Part shown: positions 12,368 to 54,534 of the stretch, piece by piece | Layout: the number at the start of each line of letters is the position of its first letter | Position numbering within the stretch: the first letter of the stretch is position 1 | Assembly (NCBI GenBank): GCA_963717965.1 | Contig: CAVQXS010000003.1 | Coordinates: 134,896 to 198,895, forward strand | Direction of reading: 5' to 3' | Source of the DNA: an uncultured Thermoleophilia bacterium | GTDB taxonomy: Bacteria > Actinomycetota > Thermoleophilia > UBA2241 | DNA length: 64,000 nt | Program-made: the position numbers and the translations under genes | Notes under the pieces: generated by a model | Databases searched by the model: none | The model's input: the letters and a program-made list of their open reading frames with translations, nothing else | What the model was told of the DNA's origin: nothing

Positions 12368-12394
12368 CGCACGCCTCCTCACTCGTTCACGCAA

Positions 12395-12770: not shown

Positions 12771-12823
12771 ACCGTGGCCGAGGAGTACCATGGACGCGAG
12801 ACCGGAGCCCCAGGGGGTGGACC

Positions 12824-13792: not shown

Positions 13793-13799
13793 GCCAGCC

Positions 13800-15473: not shown

Positions 15474-15500
15474 CGCGTCTACGCCCGATATACTCGAGAC

Positions 15501-16241: not shown

Positions 16242-16331
16242 AGACTCGCCGACGGTGACACTGGCGCGGCGGGCGGGAATCATCACCGGTGTTCCCTGAC
16301 ATCCGACCTCACGAGAGGACGGTGGGCGATC

Positions 16332-17002: not shown

Positions 17003-17028
17003 AAGCGCGACCGCCCAGGAGGCCGGCC

Positions 17029-17712: not shown

Positions 17713-17733
17713 GCGAGCGACGTTCGCCGCGCC

Positions 17734-18780: not shown

Positions 18781-18848
18781 CTCGCGCCCGCGTAACCGTT
18801 CGCCGCTGCGGCGCCGGGCGCGGCCGCCGAGCGGCGGGCCGCCGGCCC

Positions 18849-18862
18849 TTGACGCACGTCAA
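18849..18862. promoter_or_regulatory. Perfect FNR-type palindrome TTGAC-GCAC-GTCAA in the corA / ferredoxin-cooS divergent promoter region
   Basis: TTGACGcaCGTCAA, with 6-nt half-sites that are exact reverse complements. A TGTAAT -10-like hexamer lies about 27 nt downstream (18889-18894), a spacing that would fit a class II activator site. Confidence 0.45.
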
Positions 18863-18935
18863 TGAGGCCGGCCGTTCATCGCTGGTAGTGTAATCACTGT
18901 CATCATCGTGAAAACCACGCGAAAGCGAGTACTGC

Positions 18936-19319
18936 ATGGCCCTGCGTAGCATCGTGAAGATCGACGAAGACCTCTGTACCGGGTGCGGCCTCTGCGTCAC
19001 CCCGTGCGCCGAAGGCGCGATCGAGATCATCGACGGCAAGGCCAAGGTCATGAAGGAGGAGTTGTGCGACGGCGCCGGCTTCTGCCTCGCCGTCTGCCCC
19101 GAAGGAGCCCTCACCGTGGAGAAGCGCGAAGCCCCCGACTTCGACGAAGACGCCGCCGCCGAGAAGATCGCGGAGAAGCTCGCCGCCCACGTGACCATCC
19201 AGCAGACCTGCATGAACTGCGGCCGCAGCGAGAACGAGGCCATCCTCTTCCCCGCCCGCACCAAGGGCGAGAGCGCCTGGGTGTGCGTCAAGTGCCTCCC
19301 GGCGCTCATCCACGGCTGA
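18936..19319 (+). CDS. 4Fe-4S ferredoxin-domain protein with a C-terminal CxxC...CxxC zinc-ribbon-like tail
   Basis: CTGCGLCVTPC and CDGAGFCLAVCP, then CMNCGRSENE...WVCVKC. Lies immediately upstream of cooS. Confidence 0.8.
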   Translation: MALRSIVKIDEDLCTGCGLCVTPCAEGAIEIIDGKAKVMKEELCDGAGFCLAVCPEGALTVEKREAPDFDEDAAAEKIAEKLAAHVTIQQTCMNCGRSENEAILFPARTKGESAWVCVKCLPALIHG

Positions 19320-19397
19320 GCCGCTCACCGCAGCCGACCACAAGCCCCTGACGGCGCCCCGGCGCCTGACGCTCCCCACCATCCCCAGGAGGGATCC

Positions 19398-23527: not shown

Positions 23528-23710
23528 GTCCCCGGCGCCTGATCGTCGCCGCGGAGCTCCGGATCAGTCATCGGACGCAAACGATTGCCTCTGTAGACAG
23601 AACGTGTAGAATCCCGCGAATCGGCGGCTCTGCCGCCGATCCAGGTTTCTCGGACGCGGCGACGGACCTGGCCCTCGTGGGCCGGCGCCGGACACCGACT
23701 CCGGGCATCA

Positions 23711-38821: not shown

Positions 38822-40433
38822 CTAGTCTTCGAGGCCGTCGGCGGCGGGGACGTCGGGTAGCTGCGGCGGGACCTCGTCCTCGGGCAGGCCGCGGACGTGC
38901 TCGAGGGCGCGCTCCGCGGCGGCCGCGCCCTCGCGCAGGCAGTCGCCGATGCCGATGCCGTGGTAGGCGCCGCCGGCGAGCTCGATGCCGGGCACGCGGG
39001 CGACGGCGGCCTCGATGTGCCCCACGAGCTCGACGTGGCCGACGCGGTACTGCGGCATGCCGCGCGGCCAGCGGAAGATCTGCACGAACTCGGGCTCCGC
39101 CGAGATGCCCATGATCTCGCGCAGCTCGGCGCGCACGACCGCGGCCATCTCGTCGTCGTCCAGCTGGGCCGCGGCCTCGCGGCCGGCGCGGCCGAGGAAG
39201 CTGCGCAGCAGCACGTGCCCTTCGGGCGCGCGCCCGTCGAACTTGCTCGAGCTCCAGGTGGTCGCCATGACCGGGCGATTCTCAGCGCGGGGCACGACGA
39301 AGCCGAAGCCCTTGAGGTCGTGCCCCACCTGGTCGGCGCGGTAGGCGACCGACGCGGTCGCCGTCGTCACGTACTCGATGGACGAGAGGTCGGCGGCGGC
39401 GAGCGGCGCGACCGGGCGCAGCAGGTCGCCGCTCGCCCACGCCGGCGTCGCGAGGACGACGGCGTCGGCCACCACGCGGGCGCCGTCGCTGAGCTGCAGG
39501 GCGTAGGCACCGGAACCGGCGCGCGCGCCGCAGCCGGCGCCGCACTCCGCCATCGTCTTCACGCCGACCCCACCGTGCAGGCGCTCGGCCGGCAGCGACG
39601 CGACGGCGGCGTCGCTCAGGTCCTGGAGCCCGCCCTTGAAGGAGTAGAAGTACGAGCGCGGGCCCGTGGGCCTCGCGGGCCCCGCGCCGGCGCCCTGCCC
39701 CTGGCCGCCGCCTCCGGGCGCGCCCGGCCCGCCGCCGCGCGCGGCGGCGGCTTGGCGCGCCTTGCGGCGCTTGAGCATCGCGAGGATCAGGCTGCGGTGC
39801 TCGCGCTCCATGTCGAGGAACATCGGGAAGGTCGCGCGCACGCTCATCTGCTCGGGGTCGCCGGCGTGGATGCCGGCGACGATCGGCTCGGCGATGCGCT
39901 GCAGCGCCTCTTTGCCGAGGCGGCGGCGGACGAAGTCGCCGAGGCTCTCGTCGAGGGCCGGGCCGGCTGCGCCCGCCGGCCCTCCCGTCGCGCGCGCCGC
40001 CGCGCGGCAGCACGAGGTCCAGACCCATGCGGACCTTGCCCGGCCAGCTCATGAGGCCGCTCAGCGCGAACGGCACCATGCGCGTCGGGACCATCAGGAT
40101 GATGCCCTCGGGCAGCTCGTGCAGCCGCCCGCGCGTGTAGACGAAGCTCTTGCGGATGTCCTCGTTGCAGTCGAGGAAGCGGTCGGCGATGCCCAGCTCC
40201 CGGGCGGCCGTGATCGGCCAGTGCTTCTCGATGATCGCCGAGTCCGGGCCGCCCTCGACGACGAAGCCGTCGCGGCGCACGGTGTGGACCTTGCCGCCGA
40301 AGCGCGGCTCCTCCTCGTAGAGCTGCCAGTCGACGGAGGGGTCCTGCGCGCGCGCCGCTTCGAGCACGCGCGCGGCGCCCAGGCCCGCCATGCCGCCGCC
40401 GACGACGACGATGCGGAAGGAAGGGGTCGTCAG
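38822..40433 (-). CDS. hemY: Protoporphyrinogen/coproporphyrinogen III oxidase (HemY/CgoX type), with an apparent +1 insertion near 39960-40010; start codon unclear
   Basis: FRIVVVGGGMAGLGAA (FAD motif)...GGKVHTVRRDGFVVEGGPDS... | ...LDESLGDFVRRRLGKEALQRIAEPIVAGIHAGDPEQMS...WPRGMPQY...GGAYHGIGIGDC. Confidence 0.8.
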
Positions 40434-41396
40434 CCGTGCGAGTGCGGGCCGTCGGGCCGGTGGAGTGCGTGCTCCACCGGACGGCGAGCGAGGTAGTCGG
40501 TGACGACGTCGGCGAGCGCCTCGATGAAGACCGGCGAGTCGTTGGGCGCGTGCGAGCGGCGGTACTCCATGGCCGAGGCCCTCGATCTGGCCGCGCAGGA
40601 CGATGTCGAGGTCGTAGAGGGTCTCGACGTTGTCGCTGACGAAGCCGACCGGGACCACGAGGATCTTCTTCCAGCCCGCCTCGGCCAGCACGCGCACCGC
40701 GTCGTCGGCCTCGGGCTCCATCCACTCGCCGCCGCCGCGGCCCTTGCTCTGGAAGCCGAAGCGCCAGTCGCCGGGCATGATCTGCGGGACCAGCTGGGCG
40801 ATGGTCTGCTGCAGCTGGTCGACGTAGGGGTCGCCCTCGGCGATCGTCTCCACCGGGACGCTGTGCGCGGTGAAGAGGACGGCCCACTCATTGACGTCGC
40901 AGCCGTCGAGCGCCGCCGCGACGCGGCGGCTGAGCGCCTTGACGAAGCCGCGGCTCGCGTACCAGCCCTCGAGCAGCGGAATCTCCCGGCCGCGGCCGCC
41001 GGTGACGGGATCCTCCGCGGCGGCGATCTGCGTGCGGTACTTGCCGCTGGTCAGCCGCGACGAGAAGGGGCTCATCGGCAGGGCGATCACCTCGTGACCA
41101 TCCAGCGAGCGGACGCAGTCCGCGACGGTGGGCTCCGTATACAGAAAGCCGTGGCGCACGCGGATCGGGAAGGCGAGCTCCTGGACGAGCTTCGCCTGCA
41201 GCGCGGCGGCCTGGCGCACGGTGATGCCGGGGAGCGGCGAGGCGCCGCCGATGAGCGCGTAGCGCTCCTGCACGGCGGCGACCGTCCCCGGCTCGGGCGT
41301 GCGCCCCATCAGACGCTCGAGGAAGGGCACGATCTGCTCGGAGCTCTCCGGGCCGCCGTAGGCGAGCAGGGCGACGTCGACGAGGCTGTCGGTCAT
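40430..41396 (-). CDS. hemH: Ferrochelatase (HemH/CpfC type), with an apparent +1 insertion near 40568
   Basis: MTDSLVDVALLAYGGPES...FTAHSVP...VVPVGFVSDNVETLYDLDI...IEGLG | MEYRRSHAPNDSPVFIEALADVV. ggcctcggcCatggag reads through if one base is removed. Confidence 0.85.
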
Positions 41397-42545: not shown

Positions 42546-42782
42546 TCACTCGGCCGGCCGGTACCCCTCGCCGAGCGCCGCGTTACGGCACGTGTGGCAC
42601 ACCGTGATCGGCTCCTCGCAGCACTGCGGCGAGACGACCTGATAGCGCAGTGCCCGGGCGCTGAGCTTGGCGCCGCAGAGACCGCAGTGGGCACTGTCGA
42701 TGGAGCGGACGGTGGCAGGGGGCCCGGTCGCGGGAACGTCGCTGCCGTCCGTCTGAGTCGGCATCTGATGGACCTGGCCCAT
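42546..42782 (-). CDS. Small Cys-rich (zinc-ribbon-like) hypothetical protein
   Basis: 78 aa: HCGLCGAKL...PQCCEEPITVCHTCRNA. GC-rich third codon positions and RBS GGGGAGGG. Confidence 0.5.
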   Translation of the reverse strand: MGQVHQMPTQTDGSDVPATGPPATVRSIDSAHCGLCGAKLSARALRYQVVSPQCCEEPITVCHTCRNAALGEGYRPAE

Positions 42783-43111
42783 GGATCCCTCCCCTTCAGG
42801 CGGCGGAAGCCTCCGTTGTGGGGGCCACGACGCCGGTGCGGTGTCACTTGATTCGTGCCCCGAAAGGGGCCCGCAGTAACCCCCGACGGGGTGGACGACC
42901 ACGGGGGAAGTGGCGCTCCTCGAGCCTGCGGCCTCCGCCCTGTCGCCACGGTGAGCGACGCTTTCGCGCTTCTCTCCGTAGCGCATCGTAGACGGGCCCG
43001 ATAAGATGACGGCAGGCGTGCAGGCCTACCGGCCAGCCTCCAAGGTCACCGTCAGGTAGCCGTCACGCGGTAGACTGACGGTAAGATCGCGCGCCGGAGG
43101 CGCGAACGCGG

Positions 43112-43156
43112 CGAGGGCCGGGGCTGTGGAAGCAGCCCCGGCCCTCGCTTCTTCTC
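43112..43156 (+). terminator. Orphan intrinsic-terminator-like hairpin with no plus-strand ORF upstream
   Basis: CGAGGGCCGGGGCTG-tggaag-CAGCCCCGGCCCTCG, a 15-bp perfect stem followed by CTTCTTCTC. Confidence 0.5.
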
Positions 43157-43268
43157 GCCGGCGGCGGCCCTTATCCCCCTCGCGCTATCTATAAGCTGAG
43201 CTGATTTGCAGGAACAGCTTTACTTATGGACAATAGGTCGGTCGTCATCAACTGCTTCGAGGGGGAGC

Positions 43269-44228
43269 ATGAACATCGTCTCCAGGACTCCCGAGATCGA
43301 ACCCGTCACCGGCGGCGTGCTGCTGTTTCGCAGCTGCCTTGTCTCCAGCGAGTATCCCGGCGCCGAAGCGGCCACCAAGTGGCTCTTCGAGCGCTTCGGC
43401 ATCGAGTACACCGTGCATCCCGAGCAGACCTGCTGCACCGGCCTCGGCTACTACTCGGAGCTCGTCCCCGTCGCCACGTCGGTGGCGCTCGCCGCGCGCA
43501 ACGCCTGCGTCGCCGTGGAGGACGGCCACCCCGTCATGAGCTACCTCTGCTCCACCTGCTACGCGATCAACAAGAAGGCGCGCAACATCCTCAGCGTGGA
43601 CGACTTCCGCGCCGAGGCGAACAGGACGCTGGCCAAGGTCGGTCGCGAGTACGACGACTCCGTCGCCGGCGCGATCAAGCACAGTCACACGATGGAGATT
43701 CTCTGGAGCGCCCACCACAGCATCCCGGAGCTGATCCAGCGCCGTCTCGACGGGATCAAGGTCGCGACGCACCCCGCCTGCCACTACTGCAAGGTCTTCC
43801 CCGACGAGGTCGTGGGCGACAGCGAGAACTTCATGATCCCGGAGGACCTCCTCGAGGACACCGGCGTCATCAAGACCGGGATCTACAACGAGAAGACGAC
43901 CCACTGCGGCGCCGGCTTCCGCCAGCGCTTCGTGAACCCCTCGATCGCGGTCGCCGTGACGCGTGAGAAGCTGCGCCGGCTCGCGCAGGAGCAGGTCGAC
44001 GTGTGCGTGCACATGTGCCCCAACTGCGCGATCCAGTTCGACCGCCACCACAGCATCATCGAGGCGAGCTCCCAGGAGGAGTACCCCTTCGTGCACCTGC
44101 ACGTGCAGCAGCTCCTCGCCCTGGCGCTCGGCGCCGACCCCGCCAAGGACTGCGGGCTGGGCTCGCACTCGCAGGACGTCGAGCCATTGCTCGAGCGCAT
44201 CGGCGCCCCGATGAAGGCAGGTGTCTGA
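43269..44228 (+). CDS. hdrB: HdrB-like protein (two CCG-type domains with variant motifs)
   Basis: Domain 1: FRSC...EQTCCTGLG...CSTC. Domain 2: HPACHYC...THCGAGF...HMCPNC. RBS GAGGGGGAG. Confidence 0.8.
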   Translation: MNIVSRTPEIEPVTGGVLLFRSCLVSSEYPGAEAATKWLFERFGIEYTVHPEQTCCTGLGYYSELVPVATSVALAARNACVAVEDGHPVMSYLCSTCYAINKKARNILSVDDFRAEANRTLAKVGREYDDSVAGAIKHSHTMEILWSAHHSIPELIQRRLDGIKVATHPACHYCKVFPDEVVGDSENFMIPEDLLEDTGVIKTGIYNEKTTHCGAGFRQRFVNPSIAVAVTREKLRRLAQEQVDVCVHMCPNCAIQFDRHHSIIEASSQEEYPFVHLHVQQLLALALGADPAKDCGLGSHSQDVEPLLERIGAPMKAGV

Positions 44229-47200
44229 GATGCGCGCGGGAGTCTTTCTCTGCCAGTGCGGCGGCAACATCAGCGGCGTGCTCGACCTCGACGATCTCGC
44301 CGCGCACGCGCGCGCCATCCCCGGCGTCGCCAGCGTCGCCATCAACCAGTTCATGTGCGGCACCGAGGGCCACGAGCTCATCAGCGCGGCCGTGGAGGAC
44401 CGCGGGCTCGACCACCTGATCGTCGCCAGCTGCTCGCCGCGCTTCCAGGGCCCGACCTTCGAGCGCATCGCCCGCGACCTGCGCCTCGGCGAGAACGCCG
44501 TCGCCTTCGCCAACCTGCGCGAGGGCTGCAGCTTCATCCACAAGGACCAGCCCGAGCTCGCCCAGGAGAAGGCGAAGAAGATCCTCGAGGGCGCCATCGC
44601 GCGGGCGCGGCACCAGAGCGACCTGCCCCGGCAGCGCACCTTCCTGACCCGCTCCGCGCTCGTGGTCGGCGGCGGCATCGCCGGCATGACCGCCGCCGAG
44701 GAGCTCGCCGCCAGCGGCATCGAGGTGCACATGGTCGAGCGGCAGCCGTCGCTCGGCGGCTACATGGCGCGCCTCAGCAAGACGTTCCCGACCGAGGACT
44801 GCGCCATGTGCAGCCTGGCGCCGCGCCTCACGAGCACCGCCCTCGAGGGCCGCGTGCACGTGCACACGCTGACCGAGGTCGACGAGATCACCGGCCCGCC
44901 CGGCGAGTTCCGCGTCAAGCTGCGCCACAAGCCCCGCTACGTCAGCGAGGCCTGCGTCGGCTGCGGCGAGTGCGTGCCGGTCTGTCCGGTGCAGTACGCC
45001 AACGATTTCGACTTCGGCGTCAGCGAGCGCAAGGCGATCGACCGCCAGTTCGCCAACGCCGTGCCCAGCACGTTCGCAGTGGAGAAGAAGGGCTGGAGCC
45101 CGTGCAAGAGCGCCTGCGCCGTGCACACCTCGGCCCAGGGCTACGTGGCGCTGGTCGCCGCGGGCCGCTTCGACGAGGCCTACCGCGTCGCCAGCGAGCC
45201 CAACCCCTTCAGCAGCGTCTGCGGCCGCATCTGCACGCACCTCTGCGAGACCGCGTGCGCGCGCGGCAAGGTCGACGAGCCGATCGCCATCGCCGCGCTC
45301 AAGCGCTTCGTCGCCGACGAAGTCGGCCCGACGCTGCCGGTGCAGCCGGCGGCCGTCATCCACGAGGAACGAGTGGCCGTCATCGGCGCCGGCCCCGCCG
45401 GCCTCACCTGCGCCCGCGACCTGGCCGACCTCGGCTACGAGGTCACCGTCTTCGAGGCCCAGCAGGTCCCCGGCGGCATGCTGCGCACCGGCATCCCCGA
45501 CTACCGCCTGCCGCACGACGTGATCCAGCGCGAGGTCGACCAGGTGCTGGCCAAGGGCATCGAGCTCAAGCTCGGGCAGCGCGCCGGCGTCGGACTTCAC
45601 CGTCGACGGCCTCTTCGAGCAGGGCTACAGGGCCGTCTACCTGGCCACCGGCCTGCAGAAGAGCGCCGAGGCGCCGCTGCCCGGCGACGACCTCCAGGGC
45701 GTGACCCGGGCGGTCGAGCTGCTGCGCGAGCTCAACCTCGGCGGCACGCCGCAGGTCGGTGAGAAGATCGTCGTGATCGGCGGCGGCGACGTCGCCCTCG
45801 ACGCCGCCCGCTCCGCCATCCGCCTGCAGAAGCAGGCCGGCAAGGAGCCCGACGTCACCCTGGTCTACCGGCGCACCAAGGTCGAGATGCCGGCCAACGT
45901 CACCGAGGTCGAGGAGGCCCGCGAGGAGGGCCTCACGGTCGAGTTCCTCGTGCAGCCGCTCGCCATCGCCGGCGAGGACGGCAAGGTCGCCTCCATCAAG
46001 CTCCAGCGCTGCGAGCTCGGCGACCCGGACGAGTCGGGACGACGCCAGCCAGTCGCGATCGAGGGCAGCGAGTTCGACCTCGTCGTGGACACCGTGATCT
46101 TCGCCGTCGGCCAGGCGCTCGTCGACGACTTCGCGCAGGGCTGCGACGGCCTGACGCTCGAGAAGGGTCAGATCTGCGTCGAGCGCGACACGATGATGAC
46201 GACCCGCGAGGGCGTCTTCGCCGGCGGCGACGCCGCGGCCGTCGGCTTCTACACGGCGATCGAGGCCGTGGCGGCCGGCCGCAGAGGGGCCGCCTCCATC
46301 CACAACTTCCTGCGCGGCGAGCGCCTGCTCCCCGTCTGGCACGACGAGCGCGAGACCGCGCGCCCGACGGACGCGGAGCTGGCCGCCATCGCCATCGGCC
46401 AGCGCGTGCCCATGCGCATGGTCGACGGCCTCGAGCGCCGCACGGACTGGAACGAGGTCAGCCACGGCTACTCCGCCGAGGAGGCCGTGGCCGAGGCCGA
46501 GCGCTGCCTCAACTGCGCCGTCTGCAGCGAGTGCGACAGCTGCGTGCGCGCCTGCCCGAGCGGCGCCATCGACTGGGACCAGCAGGAGACCCTCGAGGAG
46601 GTGGCCGTCGGCGCCGTCATCATCGCCACCGGCCACAAGGAGTTCGACGCGCGCCGCAAGCTCATGCTGGGCTTCGGCCGCTACGACAACGTGTTGACGC
46701 AGAGCCAGCTGTCGCGGCTGCTCGCCGCGGCCGGCCCCACCGCCGGCGAGCTCGAGCGGCCCTCGGACAAGGGCGTGCCGAAGGACATCCTGATGCTCCA
46801 GTGCGTCGGCTCGCGCGACTGCCAGTCGAACGGCAACGAGCACTGCTCGGCGATCTGCTGCCTGTTCGCGACGCTGCACGCGTCGCTGATCAAGCAGCAC
46901 TACCCGGACGCCAACGTCACCATCGGCTACACCGACCTGCGCGCGCCCGGCAAGGCGCACGAGGAGTACTACCGCCTCGTGCAGGCGCGCGGCGTCCGCT
47001 ACGTGCGCGGCCGCGTCAGCGAGATCATCGAGGAGTCGGACAAGAGCCTCCGCGTCCGCTTCGAGGACACGGTGACGCAGGACAAGCACGAGGAGCTCTT
47101 CGACCTCGTCGTGCTCTCGGCCGGCCTGGAGGCGAGCGACGGCACCGCCGACATCGCCCGCGTCGCCGGCCTGCAGACCGCGGCGGCCGGCTTCATCAAG

Positions 47201-47587
47201 GAGTACCACCCCAAGCTCGCCCCGGTCGACACGCAGCGCACCGGCATGTTCCTCGCCGGCACGGCGCAGGGGCCGAAGAACATCCCCGACTCGATCGCCC
47301 AGGCGAAGGCGGCGGCGGCCCGTGCCGTCAGCATGCTGAGCACGGGCTTCGTCCTCACGCCGGCGCAGGTCGCGGCGAGCGACCCCGAGGTCTGCATCGC
47401 CTGCGGCGTCTGCGAGACGGTGTGCCCGCAGGGCGCGGTCGCCCTCACCACGGGCGCGGACCCGCACAGCGAGGTCGACCCGAACATCTGCCGCGGCTGC
47501 GGGATCTGCGCGGCGGAGTGCCCGACCGGGGCGGTCCAGCTCGGCGGCTTCAGCGACGACGAGGTGCTGGCGGAGGCGACGGTCTGA
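44221..47587 (+). CDS. hdrA: Large HdrA-like flavoprotein with an embedded GltD/NfnB-like NAD(P)H-FAD module ('HdrL-like'), with an apparent +1 insertion near 45593
   Basis: HdrA N-terminal domain VFLCQCGGNISG...SCSPRFQGPTFERI...REGCSFIH. FAD: VVGGGIAGMTAAE...FPTEDCAMCSLAPR. CVGCGECVPVCP. GltD-like: NPFSSVCGRICTHLCETACARG...VAVIGAGPAGLTCA...VVIGGGDVALDAA...VFAGGDAA. Back to HdrA: CLNCAVCSECDSCVRACP...LQCVGSRD...HCSAICC. C-terminal CIACGVCETVCP and CRGCGICAAECP. Confidence 0.85.
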
Positions 47588-48051
47588 TGGCGGTCCAGGG
47601 TGACGTCGCCCGCCGGGGTGACGGCGTGACCGGCGACGCCCGCAGCGTCGTCGCCTTCTGCTGCCGCGAGTGCGCCTACGCGGCCGCCGACGCGACCGCG
47701 AACGCGCGCACGCCGCTGCCGCCGACGGTGCGCCTCGTGCTCATGCCGTGTACCGGCCGCGTCAGCCCGCTGCACATCCTGAGCGCACTCGCCGACGGCG
47801 CCGACGGCGTCATGGTCGCCGGCTGCCTCGAGGGCCAGTGTCACTACCGCGAGGGCAACTTCAACGCCATCGACCGGGTCAAGTTCGTGCAGCGCCTGCT
47901 GAAGAGCGTCGGCGTCGAGCCCGACCGCGCGCGCATGTTCACGATGAGCGCCGGCGAGCCGCCCAAGTTCGTCGCCGCCGTCAAGGAGATGGACCGCATC
48001 GTGAAGTCGCTGCCGCCGCTCGAGCGCACCGCCGTGAGGGGGGCCGCCTGA
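47587..48051 (+). CDS. mvhD: MvhD-like (methyl-viologen-reducing hydrogenase delta subunit family) iron-sulfur protein
   Basis: VVAFCCRECAYAAAD...VRLVLMPCTGRVSPLHILSALADGADGVMVAGCLEGQCHYREGN. ATGA overlap with hdrA. Confidence 0.85.
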   Translation: MAVQGDVARRGDGVTGDARSVVAFCCRECAYAAADATANARTPLPPTVRLVLMPCTGRVSPLHILSALADGADGVMVAGCLEGQCHYREGNFNAIDRVKFVQRLLKSVGVEPDRARMFTMSAGEPPKFVAAVKEMDRIVKSLPPLERTAVRGAA

Positions 48052-48494
48052 TGCCGCTCACCAGCCGCGGCCGCGCGATCCTGAGCCGCGTGCCCGGCGG
48101 CTCGCTGCAGAGCACGACCGGCGTCGGCTGCGAGATCGTCCGCCACGAGGAGCTCTGCGTCGGCTGCGGCAAGTGCGCGACGAACTGCCCCTCGGGCGCG
48201 TCGACGCGCGGCGACCTCTTCGACGTGTACCAGTTGCTGGACGCGCCGGCCGACAGTCGCCGGGGCGCGCTCGGCACCGCGCTGCGGCGCATCATGCGCC
48301 ACGAGCCCGACGGCCCCATCGAAGTGCCGCCGCGCGTCACTGTGCTGCGCACCATCGCCTACGACGACGAGAAGTGCCTCGGCTGCGGCACGTGCGTGCG
48401 CGGCTGCCCGGCGGAGGCGATCGAGGCGCGGCCGCCGAAGGCCGATGCCGCGCCGGCAGACGCCGTGCCCGCCCGCGAGGAGGTGCCCGCATGA
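48051..48494 (+). CDS. 2x[4Fe-4S] ferredoxin-domain protein
   Basis: CVGCGKCATNCP and CLGCGTCVRGCP. ATGA-type overlaps at both ends. Confidence 0.75.
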   Translation: MPLTSRGRAILSRVPGGSLQSTTGVGCEIVRHEELCVGCGKCATNCPSGASTRGDLFDVYQLLDAPADSRRGALGTALRRIMRHEPDGPIEVPPRVTVLRTIAYDDEKCLGCGTCVRGCPAEAIEARPPKADAAPADAVPAREEVPA

Positions 48495-50986
48495 ATAGCC
48501 ACCGAAGGCAGGCTATCGAGCGGGGCACCGAAGGAGCACCGCTCTCCTCCTCCAGCGGCGCCGCGCGCCCGCTCGTCCTGCTCTGCGAGTGCGCCGGCAC
48601 GATGAAGAACGTGGACTTCGACCGCCTCGAGGCGCACGCCGGCGAGACGGCGGACACGCTGCGCGGCACGCACTGGTGCAGCCGCGAGGGACAGGCGCAG
48701 CTGCTGGAGCTTATGGAGGCCGGCGACGGACGCCAGCTCGTCTTCGCCGGCTGCTCCGAGGACTTCGCCGCCCGCCGCCTGCACAAGCTGTTCGCGCGCG
48801 GCCTCCAGCTCGAGATCGCCGACATCCGCGAGGGCTGCAGCTGGGTCCACGGCGACGCCGTCGCCGCGGTCACCGACAAGGCGATGCGCATCGTCGACTC
48901 GTCGGTGCAGTACCCGGACGCTCCGGCCGACAGCATGTCCTACGCGGAGCGCCGCGACACCGTGGTCGTGATCGGCGGCGGCGTGGCCGGCACGCAGGCC
49001 GCCGCCGAGCTCGCCAAGATGGGCCATCCGGTCGAGCTCATTGAGCGGCGGCCCTTCCTCGGCGGCCGCGCCGCCCGCATCGGCACCGTCTTCCCCACCA
49101 ACGACTGCGGCCAGTGCCTGCCCGCCGGCGACGCCCAGGCGGGCACGCGCAAGTGCTTCCACCGCAACGTGTCCATCGACCACCCCAACCTGACCATCCG
49201 CCGCCGCGCGACCGTCGAGGCCGTCGGTGGCCATCCCGGCGACTTCGAGGTCAGCGTCCGCCGCCTGCCGAACATCGTCACCGACGCCTGCGTGAACTGC
49301 GGGACCTGCGAGACGGTCTGCGAGGTCGAGTCCTCGGAGCCCGGCCGCAAGGCCATCTTCACCGAGTTCTACGACGGCCGCGTCGTGCGGACCATCGATC
49401 TCGACACCTGCACCTTCTGCGGCAAGTGCGCCGGCGAGTGCCCCGTGGAGGCGATCGACTTCGCCCAGTCGCCGGAGCGCGTCAAGATCCACGCCGGCGC
49501 GATCCTGACGGCCGTGGGCTGCGAGCCGGCGCCCGAGCGGTACTTCTCCGAGTTCCACCCCGACCACGAGAACGTGGTCACGCAGGTCGAGCTCGCCACG
49601 ATGCTCGACGGCTGGGAGGGCCAGGCGTCGCTCGGCCACATGCCGGCGAAGGAGCTGGTCATGATCCAGTGCGCCGGCTCGCGCGACAAGCGCCACCTGC
49701 CGCACTGCTCGCGCCTCTGCTGCATGATCGCCCTCAAGCACGCGATCCGCCTGAGGACCCTCTTCCCCGAGATGAAGGTCACGATCTGCTACCTCGAGAT
49801 GCGGACGGCCGGCGTGGGCTACGAGAACTGGTTCCTCGCCGCGCGCGAGGCCGGCGTCGAGTTCCTTCGCGGCACGCCGCCGGAGGTCCAGTTCGACGCG
49901 GCCGGCAGGCCGGTCATCGAGGTCGAGGACGTGACCGCCGCGCGCAAGCGCGTGCTGCGGCCGGACCTGGTCGTCCTCAGCACGGGCATGGTGCCGGCCG
50001 CGGAGACCGAGCGCCTTGCGCAGACGCTGGGCGTCGAGCGGGACGACGACGGCTTCATCGATATCCTCGATCGCAAGAACCGCGCCACCGAGACCAGCAC
50101 CGAGGGCGTCTTCGTGTGCGGCTCGGCCGCAGGTCCCAAGGCACTCATCGAGGTCAACACCGAGGCGGCGGCCGTCGCCGGCCAGATCCACAGCTTCCTC
50201 ACGTCGACCGGACGCCTTGGCACAGCGGCCTCGCAGGTCGACGCGGCCCAGTGCGTGGGCTGCGACACCTGCATGGCGATGTGCCCCTTTGGCGCCATCA
50301 CGCTTGAGGAGCGGCCGGCGGACGCGCCGCGGCCGGCCGAGGTCAAGGACGACGGCAAGCTCGCCGTCATCGACGCCCAGGTGTGCCGCGCCTGCGGCAT
50401 CTGCGCCGCCAACTGCCCCGAGGTCGCCATCGCGCACAACCTCGCCGACGACGCCCTGTTCGGCCGCATCGCGCTGATGAGCGAGGGCGTCGAGCGGCCG
50501 GTCATCGGCTTCTACTGCAAGGAGTGCGCCGGCGCCGCGATCGGCCTGAGCGGCCAGCACCGCGACCACTACCCGGAGAACGTGCGCCTCATCGAGCTGC
50601 CGTGCCTGGGCCGTGTCAGCGCGCTGCACATCGTCGAGGCGGCCCGCCTCGGCGCGGCCGGCGTGTTCCTCGCCGGCTGCGCGGAAGGCCGCTGCCAGTA
50701 CCGCAGCGGCGACACGAGCGCCCTCGAGCAGATGAGGATCGCCGACGAGGTGCTGGCCGAGAGCGGCGCCCCGCTGCCGCTCGAGCTCTGGCACCTCTGC
50801 GCCGTCGACCGCCTCAGCGTGGGCCGGCGCATCCGCCTGTTCGCCGCGAGAGCGGCCGGCGACGAGCTCTCGCTCGAGACGCTCGAGCGCGAGATGGAGC
50901 TGATCGGCGCCGGACCCGGCGCCCTTGCGGGCGCCGCCACCGGCGCCGCCTGCGCGGGAGGTGAGCGCTGTGGCCACGTCGCCTGA
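48491..50986 (+). CDS. hdrA: HdrA-like flavoprotein fused to a C-terminal MvhD domain
   Basis: LVLLCECAGTM...FAGCSEDFAARR...REGCSWVH. VVIGGGVAGTQAA...FPTNDCGQCLP. CVNCGTCETVC, CTFCGKCAGECP, IQCAGSRD...HCSRLCC, CVGCDTCMAMCP, CRACGICAANCP. MvhD part: IGFYCKECAGAA...LIELPCLGRVSALHIVEAARLGAAGVFLAGCAEGRCQY. Confidence 0.85.
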   Translation: MNSHRRQAIERGTEGAPLSSSSGAARPLVLLCECAGTMKNVDFDRLEAHAGETADTLRGTHWCSREGQAQLLELMEAGDGRQLVFAGCSEDFAARRLHKLFARGLQLEIADIREGCSWVHGDAVAAVTDKAMRIVDSSVQYPDAPADSMSYAERRDTVVVIGGGVAGTQAAAELAKMGHPVELIERRPFLGGRAARIGTVFPTNDCGQCLPAGDAQAGTRKCFHRNVSIDHPNLTIRRRATVEAVGGHPGDFEVSVRRLPNIVTDACVNCGTCETVCEVESSEPGRKAIFTEFYDGRVVRTIDLDTCTFCGKCAGECPVEAIDFAQSPERVKIHAGAILTAVGCEPAPERYFSEFHPDHENVVTQVELATMLDGWEGQASLGHMPAKELVMIQCAGSRDKRHLPHCSRLCCMIALKHAIRLRTLFPEMKVTICYLEMRTAGVGYENWFLAAREAGVEFLRGTPPEVQFDAAGRPVIEVEDVTAARKRVLRPDLVVLSTGMVPAAETERLAQTLGVERDDDGFIDILDRKNRATETSTEGVFVCGSAAGPKALIEVNTEAAAVAGQIHSFLTSTGRLGTAASQVDAAQCVGCDTCMAMCPFGAITLEERPADAPRPAEVKDDGKLAVIDAQVCRACGICAANCPEVAIAHNLADDALFGRIALMSEGVERPVIGFYCKECAGAAIGLSGQHRDHYPENVRLIELPCLGRVSALHIVEAARLGAAGVFLAGCAEGRCQYRSGDTSALEQMRIADEVLAESGAPLPLELWHLCAVDRLSVGRRIRLFAARAAGDELSLETLEREMELIGAGPGALAGAATGAACAGGERCGHVA

Positions 50987-52148
50987 GACCGTCACGCAGT
51001 CGCGCGCGGTGATCGACGCGTTCAAGCAGCTCGCCGCCGAGTGTGCGCCGTGCTACCAGTGCGGCACCTGCACCTCGAGCTGCCCGAGCGGCCGCGAGCT
51101 CTACCGCGGGCCGCGGCGCCTCGTGCGGCTCATCCTCGCCGGTGAGATCGAGGCCGTCCTCAAGAGCGACGACCTCTGGCGCTGCACCGAGTGCGGCACC
51201 TGCACCGACGTCTGCCGCATGGAGATCGACGTGGCCGGCGTGCTGCACCGGCTCCGCCGGCTGGAGCGGGAGCACGGCAGCGCCATCCGCTGCGCCGAGC
51301 GCTCGGCCGCCGACGTCGCCACCGAGCATCTGCGCAGGCGACCGCGCATCGACAACCTGCGCTTCGGTGCGGCCATGGTCGCTAGGGGCCACGTGCCCAA
51401 GGACAAGATCGGCGCCGCCGAGATGGGCGTCAAGATGGCCCGGCAGCTGGTGCCGGGAGGGAAGAAGCGGCCGGCGGGCGAAGCCGTCCCGGCCGCCGGC
51501 GGCGTCGCGCTGCCGTTCTACGCCGGTTGCGCGCTCCCGCAAGACCACGAGCTGCGCGCCTTGGTTGATGAGGTGGCCGCAGGCTTCGGCGTCCGCCTCG
51601 AGGAGGCGGCGGACGCCGGCTGCTGCGGCCACCCGAGCCGCGGCGCCGTCGGCACGCAGTTCACCACCGGCGACACCGTCTACACGGCCTGCCCGGCCTG
51701 CGACGCCAGCCTCGAGGAGGCCGGCGTCCCGACCGTGCCGCTGTGGGACGCGCTCACCGACCGGGCGCGGCGCACGGACGCCGGCCTGCGGGCCGCGTCG
51801 GCCTCCTTCGTCCCCTACGTGGGCTGCCTCACCGACCGCGACGCGGCCCTAGCCGCCCTCGACGACGCCGCCGAGCTGGCCGGCGCGACCATGAAGGTCG
51901 CCTACCCGACGCTTCACAACGGCTGCTGCGGCGCGCTCGGCGGCATGTACCGCGGCGCCACCAAGGCCAGCGCCATGCTGCTCGAGTTCGCGTCCGGCAC
52001 CGGCGCCCCTGTGGTCACGCCGTGCGTCCTCTGCCGCGACAACCTGCGCTCCGCCGCGCGTGAGCTCAAGCTCGCCGTCCCCGTCCACTTCTGGCCCGAG
52101 TTCTTCCGGGCTGCACCGACCGCCCCGGAGGTCACGACCGATGCCTGA
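50970..52148 (+). CDS. HdrC::HdrB fusion protein (2x[4Fe-4S] N-terminus plus two canonical CCG domains)
   Basis: CYQCGTCTSSCP and CTECGTCTDVCR. Then YAGC...AGCCGHP...CPAC and VGC...NGCCGALGG...CVLC. GTG start behind GGAGGTG. Confidence 0.8.
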   Translation: MATSPETVTQSRAVIDAFKQLAAECAPCYQCGTCTSSCPSGRELYRGPRRLVRLILAGEIEAVLKSDDLWRCTECGTCTDVCRMEIDVAGVLHRLRRLEREHGSAIRCAERSAADVATEHLRRRPRIDNLRFGAAMVARGHVPKDKIGAAEMGVKMARQLVPGGKKRPAGEAVPAAGGVALPFYAGCALPQDHELRALVDEVAAGFGVRLEEAADAGCCGHPSRGAVGTQFTTGDTVYTACPACDASLEEAGVPTVPLWDALTDRARRTDAGLRAASASFVPYVGCLTDRDAALAALDDAAELAGATMKVAYPTLHNGCCGALGGMYRGATKASAMLLEFASGTGAPVVTPCVLCRDNLRSAARELKLAVPVHFWPEFFRAAPTAPEVTTDA

Positions 52149-52872
52149 CGACAAGACCGCAAAGGACGACGCCGTCGCCACGGCCAAGGCCGGCAAGGCC
52201 ATCGCGCCCGAGGAGGACGGCCCCAATCTCGACAACCCCTACGCGCACATCGCCGAGACGTCGTTCAAGGGCCGCTCCGAGGCCCGCGAGGACCTCGTCG
52301 AGCGGATCATGAACGACCCGCGCATGCACGACCACAAGGACGGCTTCCAGAGCTGCATCCAGTGCGGCATCTGCACGTCGGGCTGCCCGGCGGCCCGCTT
52401 CACGGACTACGTCCCGCGTGAAGTGGCGCGCCGCGCCCTCGAGGGCGACCCCACCCTGCTCGAGGACGACACCGTCTGGTTCTGCTACTACTGCTACACC
52501 TGCCAGAGCCGCTGCCCGCGCAAGAACAGCGTCGCCGTGATCAACCAGATCGTGCGCAGCATGCAGGTCGAGAGCGGCTACGGCGTCAAGCACGTCGAGA
52601 TGTTCGCCGCCTGGGGCGAGCAGTTCTACGACAAGGGCATGGGCGGCACGCCGCACGTCTTCTTCAGCGCCATCGCCGAGGCCTGGGGGCCGAAGTGGAA
52701 GGAGTTCATCGCGAGCCGCGACGCGATGCGCGAGGAGATGGGTCTCGGCGGGATGTATCCGGCAGAGGAGGCGGTCAAGGAAGTCCAGGTGATCATGGAG
52801 GACACCGGCTTCTTCGACCGCGTCAAGAGCGTGGGCGGCTGGAAGGACCACGAGCCGAACAAGCTCAAGTAG
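52141..52872 (+). CDS. hdrC: HdrC-like 2x[4Fe-4S] protein
   Basis: CIQCGICTSGCP...FCYYCYTCQSRCP. 8-nt overlap with the upstream gene. Confidence 0.8.
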   Translation: MPDDKTAKDDAVATAKAGKAIAPEEDGPNLDNPYAHIAETSFKGRSEAREDLVERIMNDPRMHDHKDGFQSCIQCGICTSGCPAARFTDYVPREVARRALEGDPTLLEDDTVWFCYYCYTCQSRCPRKNSVAVINQIVRSMQVESGYGVKHVEMFAAWGEQFYDKGMGGTPHVFFSAIAEAWGPKWKEFIASRDAMREEMGLGGMYPAEEAVKEVQVIMEDTGFFDRVKSVGGWKDHEPNKLK

Positions 52873-52980
52873 CGCGGCCGGCGCCGGCCGGCGCCGATAC
52901 GACTACCACAAAAGGGCCGGGCGGGACGATGTGTCCCGCCCGGCCCTTCGCGCCGTACGCCGCCGTCGTGCGCGGTCCGC

Positions 52981-53514
52981 TCAGGCGGCCCGCGTCTGCG
53001 GCGGCTTCATGAATCCCGCGATGATGCGCAGGATGCCGAGCGCCACCAGGTAGACGCCCACCACCCAGAGCAGCGCCAGGACGCCGGTGACCGGGTGGAC
53101 GAAGAAGTAGATGCCGACGCCGATGCCGAGTAGCCCCACGATCACGAGCCAGATGCGCTGGCCCCCGCTGATGCCGCCGGCGAAGGCGCCAAGGAGGTCG
53201 GCGATGCCGCTGATGATGGCCCACGCGGCGATGATGTAGAGGACCGCCAGGCTCGTGGCGCCCGGCCACGCGAGCGTGACGATCCCCATGATGACGGCGA
53301 GCAAGCCGACGGCGATCGCCCAGCCCCCGCCTTCGGCGCGACCGGCGATCCCCGAGATGACCAGGAAGACGCCGTAGACGATCGTGAAGATCCCGACCAG
53401 CCAGATGATGGTGGCGAGGCTCAGTCCGGGCTGGGCGAGAAGGATCCCGCCGAGCACGATCATGAGCAGGCCGGTGATGATGGACAACGCCATCCAGGCG
53501 CCTCTGCTCTGCAT
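52981..53514 (-). CDS. HdeD/DUF308 family membrane protein
   Basis: 177 aa with six transmembrane-like repeats: GILLAQPGLSLATIIWLVGIFTIVYGVFLVISGI... Confidence 0.75.
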   Translation of the reverse strand: MQSRGAWMALSIITGLLMIVLGGILLAQPGLSLATIIWLVGIFTIVYGVFLVISGIAGRAEGGGWAIAVGLLAVIMGIVTLAWPGATSLAVLYIIAAWAIISGIADLLGAFAGGISGGQRIWLVIVGLLGIGVGIYFFVHPVTGVLALLWVVGVYLVALGILRIIAGFMKPPQTRAA

Positions 53515-53568
53515 TTCTGTCTCCTCTGTCGTTCCGGCGCGCGCTCGACGACCCGGCGCCCGCACTGA

Positions 53569-54534
53569 GTGGTTCGCCGCCGGCGGCGCGTCGCCTCCAA
53601 CCGGTCGGCGCCGACGTGCGATAGGCTTGCCGCGACCCACGACGTGGGAGGGCAGTTGGGCTCCAGCGAGGGGACGGCGGCGCGGGTGTGGCGCGAGGTG
53701 GTCGCGTTGGTGCAGACCGTGCTCGCCCACGACCTCCCCAAGCTCGCCGCCGGCCTCACCTACTTCACAGTCCTCTCGCTGCTTCCGGCGCTCATCGTCG
53801 TGGTCGCCCTGCTGGGCCTCGTCGGCCTCTCGTCCGACACCGTGACCGCGCTGCTCGACACGCTCGGCGAGCTCGGCGCCACGTGGGCGGCGGACTTCGT
53901 CTCCGCCGCCCTCGGCTCCGTGCTCGGCTCGCAGAGCTCGGGCCTGGTCCTCCTGATCAGCTTCCTGACCTCGCTCTGGGCGGCCTCGGCCTATGTCGGC
54001 GCCTTCATGTGGGCGTCCGACGGCATCTACCGCGTCGAGGCGCGGCGCCCGTTCTGGAAGAGCCTCCCGCTGCGCGTCGGCCTCGCGCTCCTGCTCCTGG
54101 TGCTGCTGTCCCTGACGGCGGCGGTGATGGCCTTCGTCGGCCCTCTCGGCCGCTGGGTCCTCGACCTCAGCGGGATCGGGTCCGGCCCCCTGAACCTCTG
54201 GTCCTGGATCAAGTGGCCGCTGCTGATCGGCCTGGGACTCCTGCTGTTCGCGGTGCTGTACCGGTTCACACCGTCCAGGCGCCAGCCCGCCCTGTGGCGG
54301 CTCCTGCCCGGCGCCGTCGCCGGCGTCGCCCTCTGGGTCCTCGCCTCCGTGGGGTTCAGCATCTACCTCGACCACTTCGCCTCGTACAACCGCGTCTACG
54401 GCACGCTGGGTGCCGGTGTGGCTTTCCTCGTGTGGGCGTGGGTCATGAACCTCGCCCTGCTGGTCGGCGTCGAGGTCAACCGCGAGGTCGAGGAGCGCCA
54501 CGCCCGGGACCCCGGCGCCGACTCCGGCGTATAA
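53569..54534 (+). CDS. YihY/BrkB family membrane protein; start uncertain
   Basis: LAAGLTYFTVLSLLPALIVVVALLG...YVGAFMWASDGIY...YGTLGAGVAFLVWAWVMNLALLVGVEVN. Confidence 0.8.
   Translation: MVRRRRRVASNRSAPTCDRLAATHDVGGQLGSSEGTAARVWREVVALVQTVLAHDLPKLAAGLTYFTVLSLLPALIVVVALLGLVGLSSDTVTALLDTLGELGATWAADFVSAALGSVLGSQSSGLVLLISFLTSLWAASAYVGAFMWASDGIYRVEARRPFWKSLPLRVGLALLLLVLLSLTAAVMAFVGPLGRWVLDLSGIGSGPLNLWSWIKWPLLIGLGLLLFAVLYRFTPSRRQPALWRLLPGAVAGVALWVLASVGFSIYLDHFASYNRVYGTLGAGVAFLVWAWVMNLALLVGVEVNREVEERHARDPGADSGV

Follow-up and report, generated by a model that had tools for sequence, protein, structure and literature searches.

Heterodisulfide reductase (Hdr) complexes of organisms other than methanogens are among the most widespread bifurcation-type gene sets without an assigned reaction. 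The name HdrL was coined in 2009 for HdrA/glutamate-synthase fusions of Desulfobacterium autotrophicum (HRM2), each of which is followed by mvhD (PMC2702500). In Syntrophobacter fumaroxidans, Sfum_0819-0824 encode HdrABC, an FeS protein, MvhD and HdrL; the proteins were detected by proteomics and were abundant only with sulfate, and HdrABC/HdrL, which has not been purified, was proposed to form a confurcating complex acting on DsrC (PMC5947623). HdrA9-11 of ANME-1 (anaerobic methanotrophic archaea) carry an insert of the NfnB/GltD kind, and for ANME clusters it has been proposed that two HdrA paralogues form heterodimers (PMC9012536). In a survey of archaeal HdrA proteins from 2025, the GltD-inserted architecture is termed 'type III' and the MvhD fusion 'type Ia'; the type III insert is predicted to keep ferredoxin out and to draw on the inserted-ferredoxin clusters for passing NAD(P)H electrons on to the HdrA flavin (PMC12054007). 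The HdrA::MvhD type is found in HdrA2B2C2 of Methanosarcina acetivorans, a characterised bifurcating enzyme that needs neither a hydrogenase nor a formate dehydrogenase (FDH) (PMC5296606). Here, we describe seven Hdr-like genes, G1 to G7, which occupy positions 43269-52872 of a 64-kb window (the whole stretch of DNA analysed) from an uncultured Thermoleophilia bacterium with 72% G+C.

The cluster is an uncommonly complete and taxonomically unexpected version of the already known, uncharacterised HdrL/HdrABC gene sets, sets of this kind being known from sulfate reducers and archaea. Thermoleophilia are usually regarded as aerobic heterotrophs. In our favoured reading, to which we give about an even chance, the operon encodes one soluble, cytoplasmic and asymmetric Hdr complex, which would take up NADPH via a StnC-like module and distribute the electrons to a disulfide and a low-potential ferredoxin. 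Literature combining Thermoleophilia or Gaiellales with heterodisulfide reductase yielded no description of the seven-gene cluster. A preliminary description of the same DNA had implied that the composition is new. While the mechanism it put forward is reasonable, its novelty was overstated in view of the naming of HdrL in 2009, the S. fumaroxidans set, the ANME proposals, the type Ia and III classes and three clusters treated below (L070-L072); to judge from the searchable literature, it still holds that no complex of such composition has been characterised biochemically.

A seven-gene Hdr cluster conserved in Thermoleophilia

At 72% G+C the raw lists of open reading frames (ORFs) are crowded with spurious frames, and coding frames were therefore chosen by their third-position GC content (GC3). 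Domains were assigned with Pfam and NCBIfam hidden Markov models. The genes and their main features are as follows (aa, amino acids).

43269..44228, + strand: G1, HdrB-like subunit, 319 aa; Pfam CCG 60 bits, NCBIfam HdrB 326 bits
44221..47587, + strand: G2, HdrL (type III HdrA), 1121 aa once repaired; frame 1 to 45591, frame 2 from 45593
45088..46519, + strand: GltD/NfnB-like insert of HdrL, residues ~290-766
45589..45595, + strand: frameshift site in HdrL, one extra G (45592) within GTC-G-GAC
47587..48051, + strand: G3, free-standing MvhD, 154 aa; Pfam FlpD 145 bits; [2Fe-2S]-type Cys pattern
48051..48494, + strand: G4, 2x[4Fe-4S] ferredoxin-like protein, 147 aa; Pfam Fer4 families
48491..50986, + strand: G5, HdrA::MvhD fusion (type Ia, HdrA2-like), 831 aa
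~50501-50770, + strand: MvhD domain of G5, residues ~671-760
50970..52148, + strand: G6, HdrC::HdrB-like fusion (HdrD-like, soluble), 392 aa
52141..52872, + strand: G7, separate HdrC, 243 aa; NCBIfam HdrC 203 bits

The cluster thus holds two non-identical copies each of HdrA, MvhD, HdrC and HdrB(-like) plus one ferredoxin. The preliminary description had the seven co-directional genes and their coordinates right, and its domain map (HdrB, HdrL, MvhD, ferredoxin, HdrA::MvhD, HdrC::HdrB-like, HdrC) proved essentially correct. Successive genes overlap, as it had said, but by 8, 1, 1, 4, 17 and 8 nucleotides (nt) rather than by 4-11 nt or with tiny gaps. The 17-nt overlap of G5 and G6 recurs in the gene calls of relatives. 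A convincing transmembrane segment is present in none of the seven proteins, and a scan of positions 42800-53700 for consensus promoters and terminators gave nothing above shuffled expectation, such a scan being uninformative for an actinobacterium of 72% GC.

Conservation was scanned in one genome per GTDB species, yielding 63 loci at 62-94% identity, all of them in metagenome-assembled genomes (MAGs). Almost every one bears the name Thermoleophilia, Gaiellaceae or Actinomycetota (names given for homologues include 'Actinobacteria bacterium', 'Thermoleophilia bacterium' and 'Gaiellaceae bacterium'), the one exception being a 5-kb contig labelled Deltaproteobacteria. MAG isolate names point to Danish soils, fen, palsa, Chersky permafrost, lake sediment and an anaerobic membrane bioreactor. 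The preliminary description had suggested checking the gene order against databases. By tblastn with the seven proteins, order and strand are identical in all 46 loci that are long enough to show it, and the arrangement is therefore far beyond chance. With dN/dS values of 0.18-0.46, all seven genes are under purifying selection across Thermoleophilia, and strict conservation of the cluster extends over at least 63 species-level lineages of this class.

The usual Hdr partners had been described as missing from the cluster and its surroundings, and the genes examined agree with this. Genes for a hydrogenase, FDH, MetFV, Flx, Dsr, DsrE/TusA/LbpA or AOR were not found among the ORFs scanned in the 64-kb window, nor were those for a hydrogenase, FDH, MetFV, Flx or DsrE/TusA/LbpA among the flanking genes examined in 46 relatives. 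The flanks were analysed by clustering of flanking ORFs and by Pfam. Recurrent neighbours are hemE/hemH/hemY, a radical-SAM/CoA-binding protein and an amidase upstream, and NadA, BrkB, DUF308, ThiS and an alcohol dehydrogenase downstream; these are housekeeping genes only and represent backbone synteny. Gaiellaceae have entirely different flanks (SufBD, Band 7; aldo-keto reductase, MerR, PII-Amt). The Ni-containing carbon monoxide dehydrogenase (CODH) noticed earlier is indeed encoded 22.0 kb upstream of the cluster (CooS, 19320-21263; TIGR01702 724 bits, cut-off 478). A functional link between cluster and CooS is unsupported at this distance, with unrelated housekeeping genes in between.

The true partner or substrate might instead be encoded elsewhere in the genome, as DsrC/DsrAB, MetFV or an F420-dependent donor acting on G5, in which case the cluster would only be the electron-handling core of a known pathway; we regard this as possible, if doubtful. 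F420 is common in Actinomycetota, which speaks for the last of these options. Furthermore, dsrAB is present in some uncultured Thermoleophilia, for which sulfate reduction has been predicted (PMC9326234, PMC13503563), DsrC/DsrAB were proposed for S. fumaroxidans, the Syntrophaceae cluster L072 is flanked by MetV/MetF genes, and the best NCBIfam match of G5 is HdrA2, a user of F420H2 (PMC5296606). Yet no such gene turned up among the scanned ORFs and examined flanking genes, and the flanks vary by lineage while the seven genes stay together.

Two described systems were considered and rejected. The sulfur-oxidation system sHdr (hdrC1B1A-hyp-hdrC2B2) also has two different HdrB/HdrC sets in one operon. 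However, sHdrA has ~350 aa, whereas both HdrA proteins of the cluster are of the long type; 6tjr_A matches only part of G5 and G2, with 93-138 bits. Moreover, sHdr has no MvhD and no GltD insert, and the dsrE, tusA and lbpA genes of sHdr loci were not found in the ORFs scanned or the relatives' flanking genes examined. BamCDEF resemble Fd, HdrD, HdrA and MvhD. A Bam-type class II benzoyl-CoA reductase was dismissed since the window and the flanking genes examined hold no BamB/AOR-type or NuoEFG-type gene.

HdrA paralogues, the GltD-like insert and the HdrB/HdrC modules

Both HdrA paralogues were compared residue by residue with the solved methanogen HdrA (8rvu_a/5odc_A). HdrL matches 8rvu_a with 546 bits, its residues 1-289 aligning with HdrA 9-298 and its residues 767-1118 with HdrA 300-648, so that, within the inserted-ferredoxin domain, the ~477-aa module lies precisely between one cluster motif and the other (HdrA positions 298/300). 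Pfam and NCBIfam give the same order, i.e. HdrA, then Fer4_20/Pyr_redox_2 (GltD-like), then HdrA, with an NCBIfam score of 714 bits that stays below the equivalog cut-off of 1100. As in HdrL proteins, a GltD/NfnB-like module lies within the inserted-ferredoxin domain, and mvhD begins at the HdrL stop codon. For G5, the whole HdrA part aligns with solved methanogen HdrA (277 bits) and is followed by a C-terminal FlpD domain at residues 671-759 (Pfam 83 bits; PDB MvhD chains match residues 668-767), the fusion with its [2Fe-2S] Cys pattern being that of type Ia (HdrA2-like). Both paralogues keep all Fe-S cysteine motifs that these alignments show: the N-terminal C-x-C...C...C set, DCxxC, which supplies the Cys of the shared cluster, C...CxxxCC and both CxxCxxCxxxC pairs, in the inserted and in the C-terminal ferredoxin domain. 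The GGGxAG FAD motif is kept as well. The preliminary description had allowed for the HdrA calls being generic pyridine-nucleotide-disulfide oxidoreductases; judged by these motifs, G2 and G5 are instead complete HdrA proteins. Homologues number more than 4700 for HdrL (E <= 1e-30) and more than 2000 for G5 (E <= 1e-20).

G5 has the same C-terminal MvhD fusion as HdrA2 of M. acetivorans, and HdrA2 is its best NCBIfam family, but with 472 bits it remains far below the cut-off of 1100. In addition, HdrA2B2C2 uses F420H2 or ferredoxin as donor and CoM-S-S-CoB as substrate, and works without HdrL, a second B/C set or an extra ferredoxin.

In the window, G2 is split over two ORFs, 44221-45591 in frame 1 and 45593-47587 in frame 2, according to frame and GC3 analysis. 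The preliminary description had given the domains and the length of this ~1120-aa HdrA with its GltD-like module correctly, but it had missed the frameshift at 45592 and treated the gene as a single ORF. Deleting the extra G at 45592 restores the 1121-aa HdrL. This base is missing from all 25 related loci aligned at the site, and relatives carry an intact HdrL of ~1118 aa; among the best 120 HdrL homologues listed, most are uninterrupted and of 1112-1156 aa, with ~9 shorter partial sequences among them. A relative with 95% identity (L067) is broken at another place, and matches are fragmented at many loci from the same family of long-contig soil MAGs. GC3 remains undisturbed at ~1.0 on either side of 45592, no other lesion occurs across 3.4 kb, and dN/dS of both HdrL halves is like that of the other six genes. 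Two - strand genes in the window are likewise split by frameshifts, namely hemY (38825-39955, frame -1; 40005-40370, frame -3) and hemH (40572-41396, frame -3; 40433-40591, frame -1), and are 86-92% identical to intact proteins of relatives, which indicates frequent indel errors in the assembly. Given that relatives lack the extra base, that L067 is broken elsewhere, that hemY and hemH are also split and that codon bias and dN/dS are intact, the HdrL frameshift very probably is an assembly indel error.

It is very unlikely, in our estimate, that the cluster is decaying in this organism, with hdrL a (very recent) pseudogene and the system non-functional. What speaks for such decay is the +1 frameshift itself, which is real in the window and is an insertion seen in no aligned relative. 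Against it stand the intact codon bias on both sides of a single lesion, the frameshifts in the nearby essential genes hemY and hemH, and sister long-read assemblies that break at other, differing places, as is typical of indel errors. A programmed +1 frameshift was rejected because the sequence is in frame in every relative aligned at the site.

Among solved structures, the insert of HdrL matches 9bov_A (385 bits), the Bfu-type NfnA 9n5u_A (364), StnC 8oh5_C (312) and NfnB 4ylf_B (297) and 5jca_L (287). Its homology to GltD-type modules covers their full length. It carries the FAD motif GAGPAG and two [4Fe-4S] sites, and behind its second Rossmann motif, GGGDVA (GxGxxA), stands YRR, as it does in NADPH-binding relatives. 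Compared to NfnB/GltD it is circularly permuted: the N-terminal 40 residues of NfnB (...EEAxxEAxRCLxC) align to the end of the insert, where the segment 'EAERCLNC' abuts the second ferredoxin motif of HdrA (HdrL residues ~723-777, window ~46390-46560). The junction string C-LN-C-AV-C-SE-C-DS-C-VRA-C-P places six Cys in 19 residues and joins a GltD-type cluster half-site to the HdrA ferredoxin motif. The same permuted arrangement exists in StnC, Bfu-type NfnA and 9bov_A. On these features, the GltD-like module is intact and of the NADPH-binding type, in line with the NAD(P)H entry that had been postulated for it.

According to cryo-electron microscopy of Stn, the GltD module of StnC binds NADPH, and its FAD is non-bifurcating and passes single electrons to a separate bifurcating site (PMC10482914). 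The insert of HdrL has a Lys at the position of StnC K170, where bifurcating NfnB has a Glu. Since Lys replaces Glu at this special cluster, and since the domain map shows no NfnA/PyrK-like partner gene among the seven, whose [2Fe-2S] cluster and a-FAD would receive the high-potential electron, an Nfn-like self-bifurcating role of the insert was rejected. StnABC and the Bfu-type NfnABC are the best solved relatives of the insert (312-385 bits), sharing the permutation ('RCLxC' after the Rossmann domains), the Lys and the NADPH-type motifs; there, however, the module feeds a HydBC-type FMN bifurcation site, whereas here it would feed the HdrA flavin. The type III HdrA proteins of ANME-1 and Bathyarchaeota resemble HdrL in having a GltD/NfnB-like insert of ~480-500 aa in the inserted-ferredoxin domain of a complete HdrA, and asymmetric HdrA heterodimers have been proposed for the two-paralogue clusters of ANME (PMC9012536, PMC12054007). 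In contrast to the GxGxxA + YRR (NADPH-type) found here, the archaeal inserts are reported to have GxGxxG, which was read as NADH-type. Furthermore, mvhADG or methane-metabolism genes accompany the archaeal clusters, which use CoM-S-S-CoB, while the present host is a bacterium with no such genes in view.

In the two small subunits, Cys 26, 29, 55, 80 and 85 of G3 are invariant in 36 orthologues, and the Cys of G4 are conserved in 51-52 of 52, with an unusually long spacer of 62 residues separating its two CxxCxxCxxxC motifs.

The HdrB/HdrC modules were assessed against the canonical CCG pattern, C-x31-39-CC-x35-36-CxxC, which ligates non-cubane [4Fe-4S] clusters and occurs twice per HdrB. HdrB and G1 can be aligned over the full length (144 bits for M. 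wolfeii 5odc_B), but the NCBIfam HdrB score falls short of the cut-off of 450. Its first CCG domain is near-canonical (C23-x31-C55C56-x37-C94xxC97), but the second is modified to C171xxC174 ... H212-C213-G ... C250xxC253, with His replacing the first Cys of CCG. H212, C213 and C174 are conserved in 51-52 of 52 orthologues, with H212-C213-G in 51 of them and the extra Cys174 (CHYC) invariant, which points to an exchanged ligand in the second of the non-cubane cluster sites. G7 falls below the NCBIfam HdrC cut-off of 270 bits, and its eight cluster Cys are invariant in 31 orthologues.

The N-terminal half of G6 is HdrC-like with 2x[4Fe-4S] (74 bits to HdrC 9sfi_E; hhalign probability 98.6% against G7), as had been described. 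The C-terminal half had been credited with two canonical CCG domains, but it scores 20.1 bits with Pfam CCG against a cut-off of 20.6, and its spacings, C-x30-CC-x21-CxxC and C-x32-CC-x31-CxxC, are shorter than canonical. Its ten Cys, forming two C...CC...CxxC sets, are invariant in 39 orthologues. This half has no sequence match in the PDB and no profile similarity to G1 (hhalign probability 2.5%). As sequence alone cannot show that it is HdrB-like, a structure was predicted. The AlphaFold2 model of G6 (42 sequences) has moderate confidence with a mean pLDDT (per-residue confidence score) of 70.6; in the CCG-like region most 10-residue blocks reach 73-95, with dips to 42-64 around the two CC-motif loops. 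Foldseek with this model returned LutA (E = 1.4e-5), M. smegmatis EtfD (5.6e-5), HdrB (2.2e-4) and HdrC (6.7e-4). The predicted HdrC::HdrB fusion hence holds at the level of the modelled fold, with CCG domains that are not canonical. With 364 matches in 5.8 billion proteins, of which the best 120 are all at least 71% identical, the fused proteins form a small, clade-restricted family.

Candidate architecture of the complex and its alternatives

We picture the complex as an asymmetric form of the dimeric methanogen (HdrABC-MvhD)2 core. One half would consist of HdrL (type III HdrA), MvhD (G3), HdrB (G1) and HdrC (G7), the other of the type Ia HdrA::MvhD (G5) and the fused HdrC::HdrB-like G6, with the ferredoxin G4, encoded between the two MvhD units, as wire or carrier. 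Hydride from NADPH would be taken up by the non-bifurcating FAD of the GltD module and passed on one electron at a time via the two GltD [4Fe-4S] clusters and the inserted-ferredoxin clusters to the HdrL flavin. There, bifurcation would send the high-potential electron via HdrC (G7) to the non-cubane clusters of HdrB (G1), reducing a disulfide, and the low-potential electron via MvhD (G3)/G4 to the second HdrA, the MvhD::HdrA fusion G5. A second bifurcation might take place at G5, with G6 as second disulfide site or high-potential outlet, and a very low-potential electron would end on ferredoxin. In vivo, the reaction may also run in reverse.

One asymmetric complex is favoured by the 2:2:2:2 duplication of HdrA, MvhD, HdrC and HdrB(-like) subunits, as already anticipated for the two HdrA and two B/C sets, and by the gene order HdrL-MvhD-Fd-HdrA::MvhD with G1 and G7 bracketing the operon. 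The gene overlaps, the order kept in every testable locus, the dN/dS values and the lack of transmembrane helices argue in the same direction. The NADPH wiring is based on the position of the insert, its StnC-like Lys and GxGxxA + YRR, and the type III prediction arrives at the same wiring (PMC12054007). Support also comes from the expression of the analogous HdrABC/HdrL set in S. fumaroxidans (PMC5947623) and from the proven bifurcation by HdrA2B2C2 (PMC5296606). The methanogen MvhAGD-HdrABC and Fdh-Hdr complexes (5odc, 7bkb, 8rvu) comprise the same subunit families and cofactor motifs, and the seven genes could fill their dimer of HdrA-MvhD-HdrC-HdrB units exactly once, asymmetrically. Unlike in those complexes, MvhAG/Fdh are missing here, the halves are non-identical, an NADPH module sits on the ferredoxin branch, H-C-G stands at the second HdrB site, and one of the B/C pairs is a divergent fusion.

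In a more far-reaching version, a single HdrL/HdrA heterodimeric machine would perform two serial bifurcations starting from NADPH at two different thiol/disulfide sites, one H-C-G-type and one clade-specific and HdrD-like, with an actinobacterial thiol couple (e.g. mycothiol-type or a protein disulfide) in place of CoM-S-S-CoB or DsrC. We consider this version unlikely as a whole. If it were true, widespread soil Actinomycetota would be able to use NADPH to reduce ferredoxin at very low potential, with no need for hydrogenase, formate or F420 partners. In any case, the cluster is compact and self-contained, its hydride donor module being built into HdrA, and it would provide a natural asymmetric HdrA pair (III + Ia), each with its own B/C module. 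Heterologous expression could reveal the wiring between NADPH and an HdrA flavin, as well as the disulfide that bacterial Hdr systems use.

Several points weigh against the asymmetric NADPH-driven complex. The model is built on sequence, which cannot tell a heterodimer from two homodimeric complexes. The HdrA, HdrB and HdrC subunits all score under the NCBIfam equivalog cut-offs, and the cluster proteins are consequently to be taken as relatives, not orthologues, of the CoB-CoM (coenzyme B-coenzyme M) enzyme subunits; they should not be annotated as CoB-CoM heterodisulfide reductase. The H-C-G site of G1 and the non-canonical CCG spacing of G6 may stand for a chemistry other than disulfide reduction, and no catabolic disulfide-generating system is visible in the window. 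Finally, the NADPH module sits on the inserted-ferredoxin domain, the proposed ferredoxin-output branch of methanogen HdrA, so that by analogy NADP+ could be an acceptor rather than NADPH a donor.

This last point leads to a confurcating, transhydrogenase-like valve, in which reduced ferredoxin (e.g. from CooS or 2-oxoacid oxidoreductases) and thiols together reduce NADP+, or in which NADP+ is the acceptor on the ferredoxin-reducing branch known from methanogens. Such a valve fits the grafting of the GltD module onto what is proposed to be the ferredoxin branch of HdrA (PMC12054007), the confurcation proposed for HdrABC/HdrL of S. fumaroxidans (PMC5947623) and the CooS and ferredoxin genes 22 kb away. 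The passage of electrons from reduced ferredoxin to NADP+ is, however, exergonic and needs no coupling, CooS lies beyond the 10-kb flanks and is unlinked to the cluster, and the direction of the reaction is not revealed by the sequence. Altogether we judge the valve improbable.

Whether the seven proteins form one assembly is also a matter of what accompanies HdrL in other organisms. An exhaustive HMMER search with HdrL against 1.84 billion cluster representatives places the Thermoleophilia HdrL in one 50% cluster. Two kinds of relative come next, at 39-43% identity. Those of Thorarchaeota, Heimdall/Asgard archaea, Dehalogenimonas sp. WBC-2 and marine Pseudomonadales MAGs are colinear proteins with 1113-1152 aa, whereas Syntrophaceae have a ~1495-aa type. 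Five of the corresponding loci were compared.

L068, Dehalogenimonas sp. WBC-2 (CP011392.1), 1-13357: HdrD-HdrL, next to genes of acetyl-CoA synthase (ACS)/CODH
L069, marine Pseudomonadales MAG GCA_030751975.1, 8578-16532: HdrC-HdrB-HdrL-MvhD-HdrD-GlcD-like
L070: HdrD-HdrL-MvhD-FeS-HdrA(1007 aa)
L071: HdrC-HdrB-HdrC-HdrB-HdrL-MvhD-HdrA(split)
L072, Syntrophaceae: HdrC-HdrB-HdrL(1495)-MvhD-HdrA(1037)-MvhD-MetV, with a divergent HdrA-MvhD-MetV-MetF set beside it

To judge from the distantly related L070, L071 and L072, a design in which HdrL goes together with MvhD, a second HdrA and one or two B/C sets is recurrent. Accessory subunits, in turn, are lineage-specific: G5 is only ~30-33% identical to the other second HdrAs and G1 24-29% to their HdrBs, and the C-terminal half of G6 has no counterpart.

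These loci bear on a second alternative, namely two separate but co-regulated complexes, an NADPH-linked (HdrL-MvhD-HdrB-HdrC)2 and an (HdrA::MvhD-HdrD-like)2 served by G4, perhaps acting on different thiols. Methanogen HdrA forms homodimers in the solved structures, HdrA2B2C2 works alone (PMC5296606), and HdrL is found without a second HdrA in Dehalogenimonas and the marine Pseudomonadales, so HdrL does not need G5. On the other hand, all of the 46 loci keep the interleaved order, in which G1 (HdrB) comes first at the 5' end and G7 (HdrC), its presumed partner, last at the 3' end, and this is easier to understand for one assembly; HdrL, MvhD and a second HdrA moreover recur together in L070, L071, L072 and S. 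fumaroxidans (PMC5947623). We therefore see two complexes as rather unlikely and retain the single asymmetric complex as the preferred architecture.

The deltaproteobacterial loci of S. fumaroxidans and D. autotrophicum are alike in that MvhD and a small FeS protein come directly after HdrL, together with a second HdrA plus HdrB/HdrC, and in that the proteins are soluble, lack a hydrogenase catalytic subunit and have NAD(P)H as proposed hydride partner (PMC5947623, PMC2702500). They differ in the size of HdrL (~1495 aa, matching only query residues 142-1037 and having an extra HdrA-like part), in the second HdrA (a tandem type of 1007-1037 aa, ~30-33% identical to G5) and in having one B/C set instead of two, with no HdrC::CCG fusion of the G6 type. 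Their context of sulfate reduction/DsrC or MetFV is likewise not seen here.

Two of the compared loci have a setting of their own. The Dehalogenimonas pair of HdrD-like protein and HdrL, with neither MvhD nor a second HdrA, lies ~5 kb downstream of genes for CdhC, CdhD and a pterin-binding protein. The Pseudomonadales cluster, whose host presumably is an aerobe, ends in a GlcD-like FAD_binding_4 oxidase, possibly a link to 2-hydroxyacid oxidation; its protein is indexed in 92 blocks of the sequence collection.

Neighbouring genes

Between hemE and the Hdr operon lies a small Cys-rich ORF (42555-42782, - strand) of ~80 aa, zinc-ribbon-like with CxxC ... CxxC, which is 62% identical to an ORF in the same position in the relative L002. 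Directly upstream of the operon, and on its strand, 12 related loci encode a protein of 450-560 aa whose N-terminus resembles a signal peptide (e.g. L002:3058-4410, L067:4216-5610, L049:7165-8844); it has no Pfam match and is absent from the window. In a Gaiellaceae MAG (GCA_049591255.1, L003:1-1623), the SufB upstream of the operon contains an intein with a LAGLIDADG endonuclease domain (Intein_splicing + LAGLIDADG_3 within SUFBD).

Further upstream, positions 11693-21263 of the window are a possible CO/ferredoxin-linked neighbourhood. The genes of this stretch and of its surroundings are the following.

3831-4439, - strand: beta-class carbonic anhydrase
7712-8446: CobD, cobalamin-tail gene
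8713-9624: CobC-like histidine phosphatase, cobalamin-tail gene
9625-10806: CobS, cobalamin-tail gene
11693-13792: DUF362 Fe-S protein
13770-15473: fused NapH/NapG-like membrane polyferredoxin
15474-16241: Crp/Fnr-family regulator
17734-18858, - strand: CorA
18912-19319: small 2x[4Fe-4S] ferredoxin, adjoining CooS at 19320-21263
21908-23563, - strand: papain-family cysteine protease with a lectin-like domain

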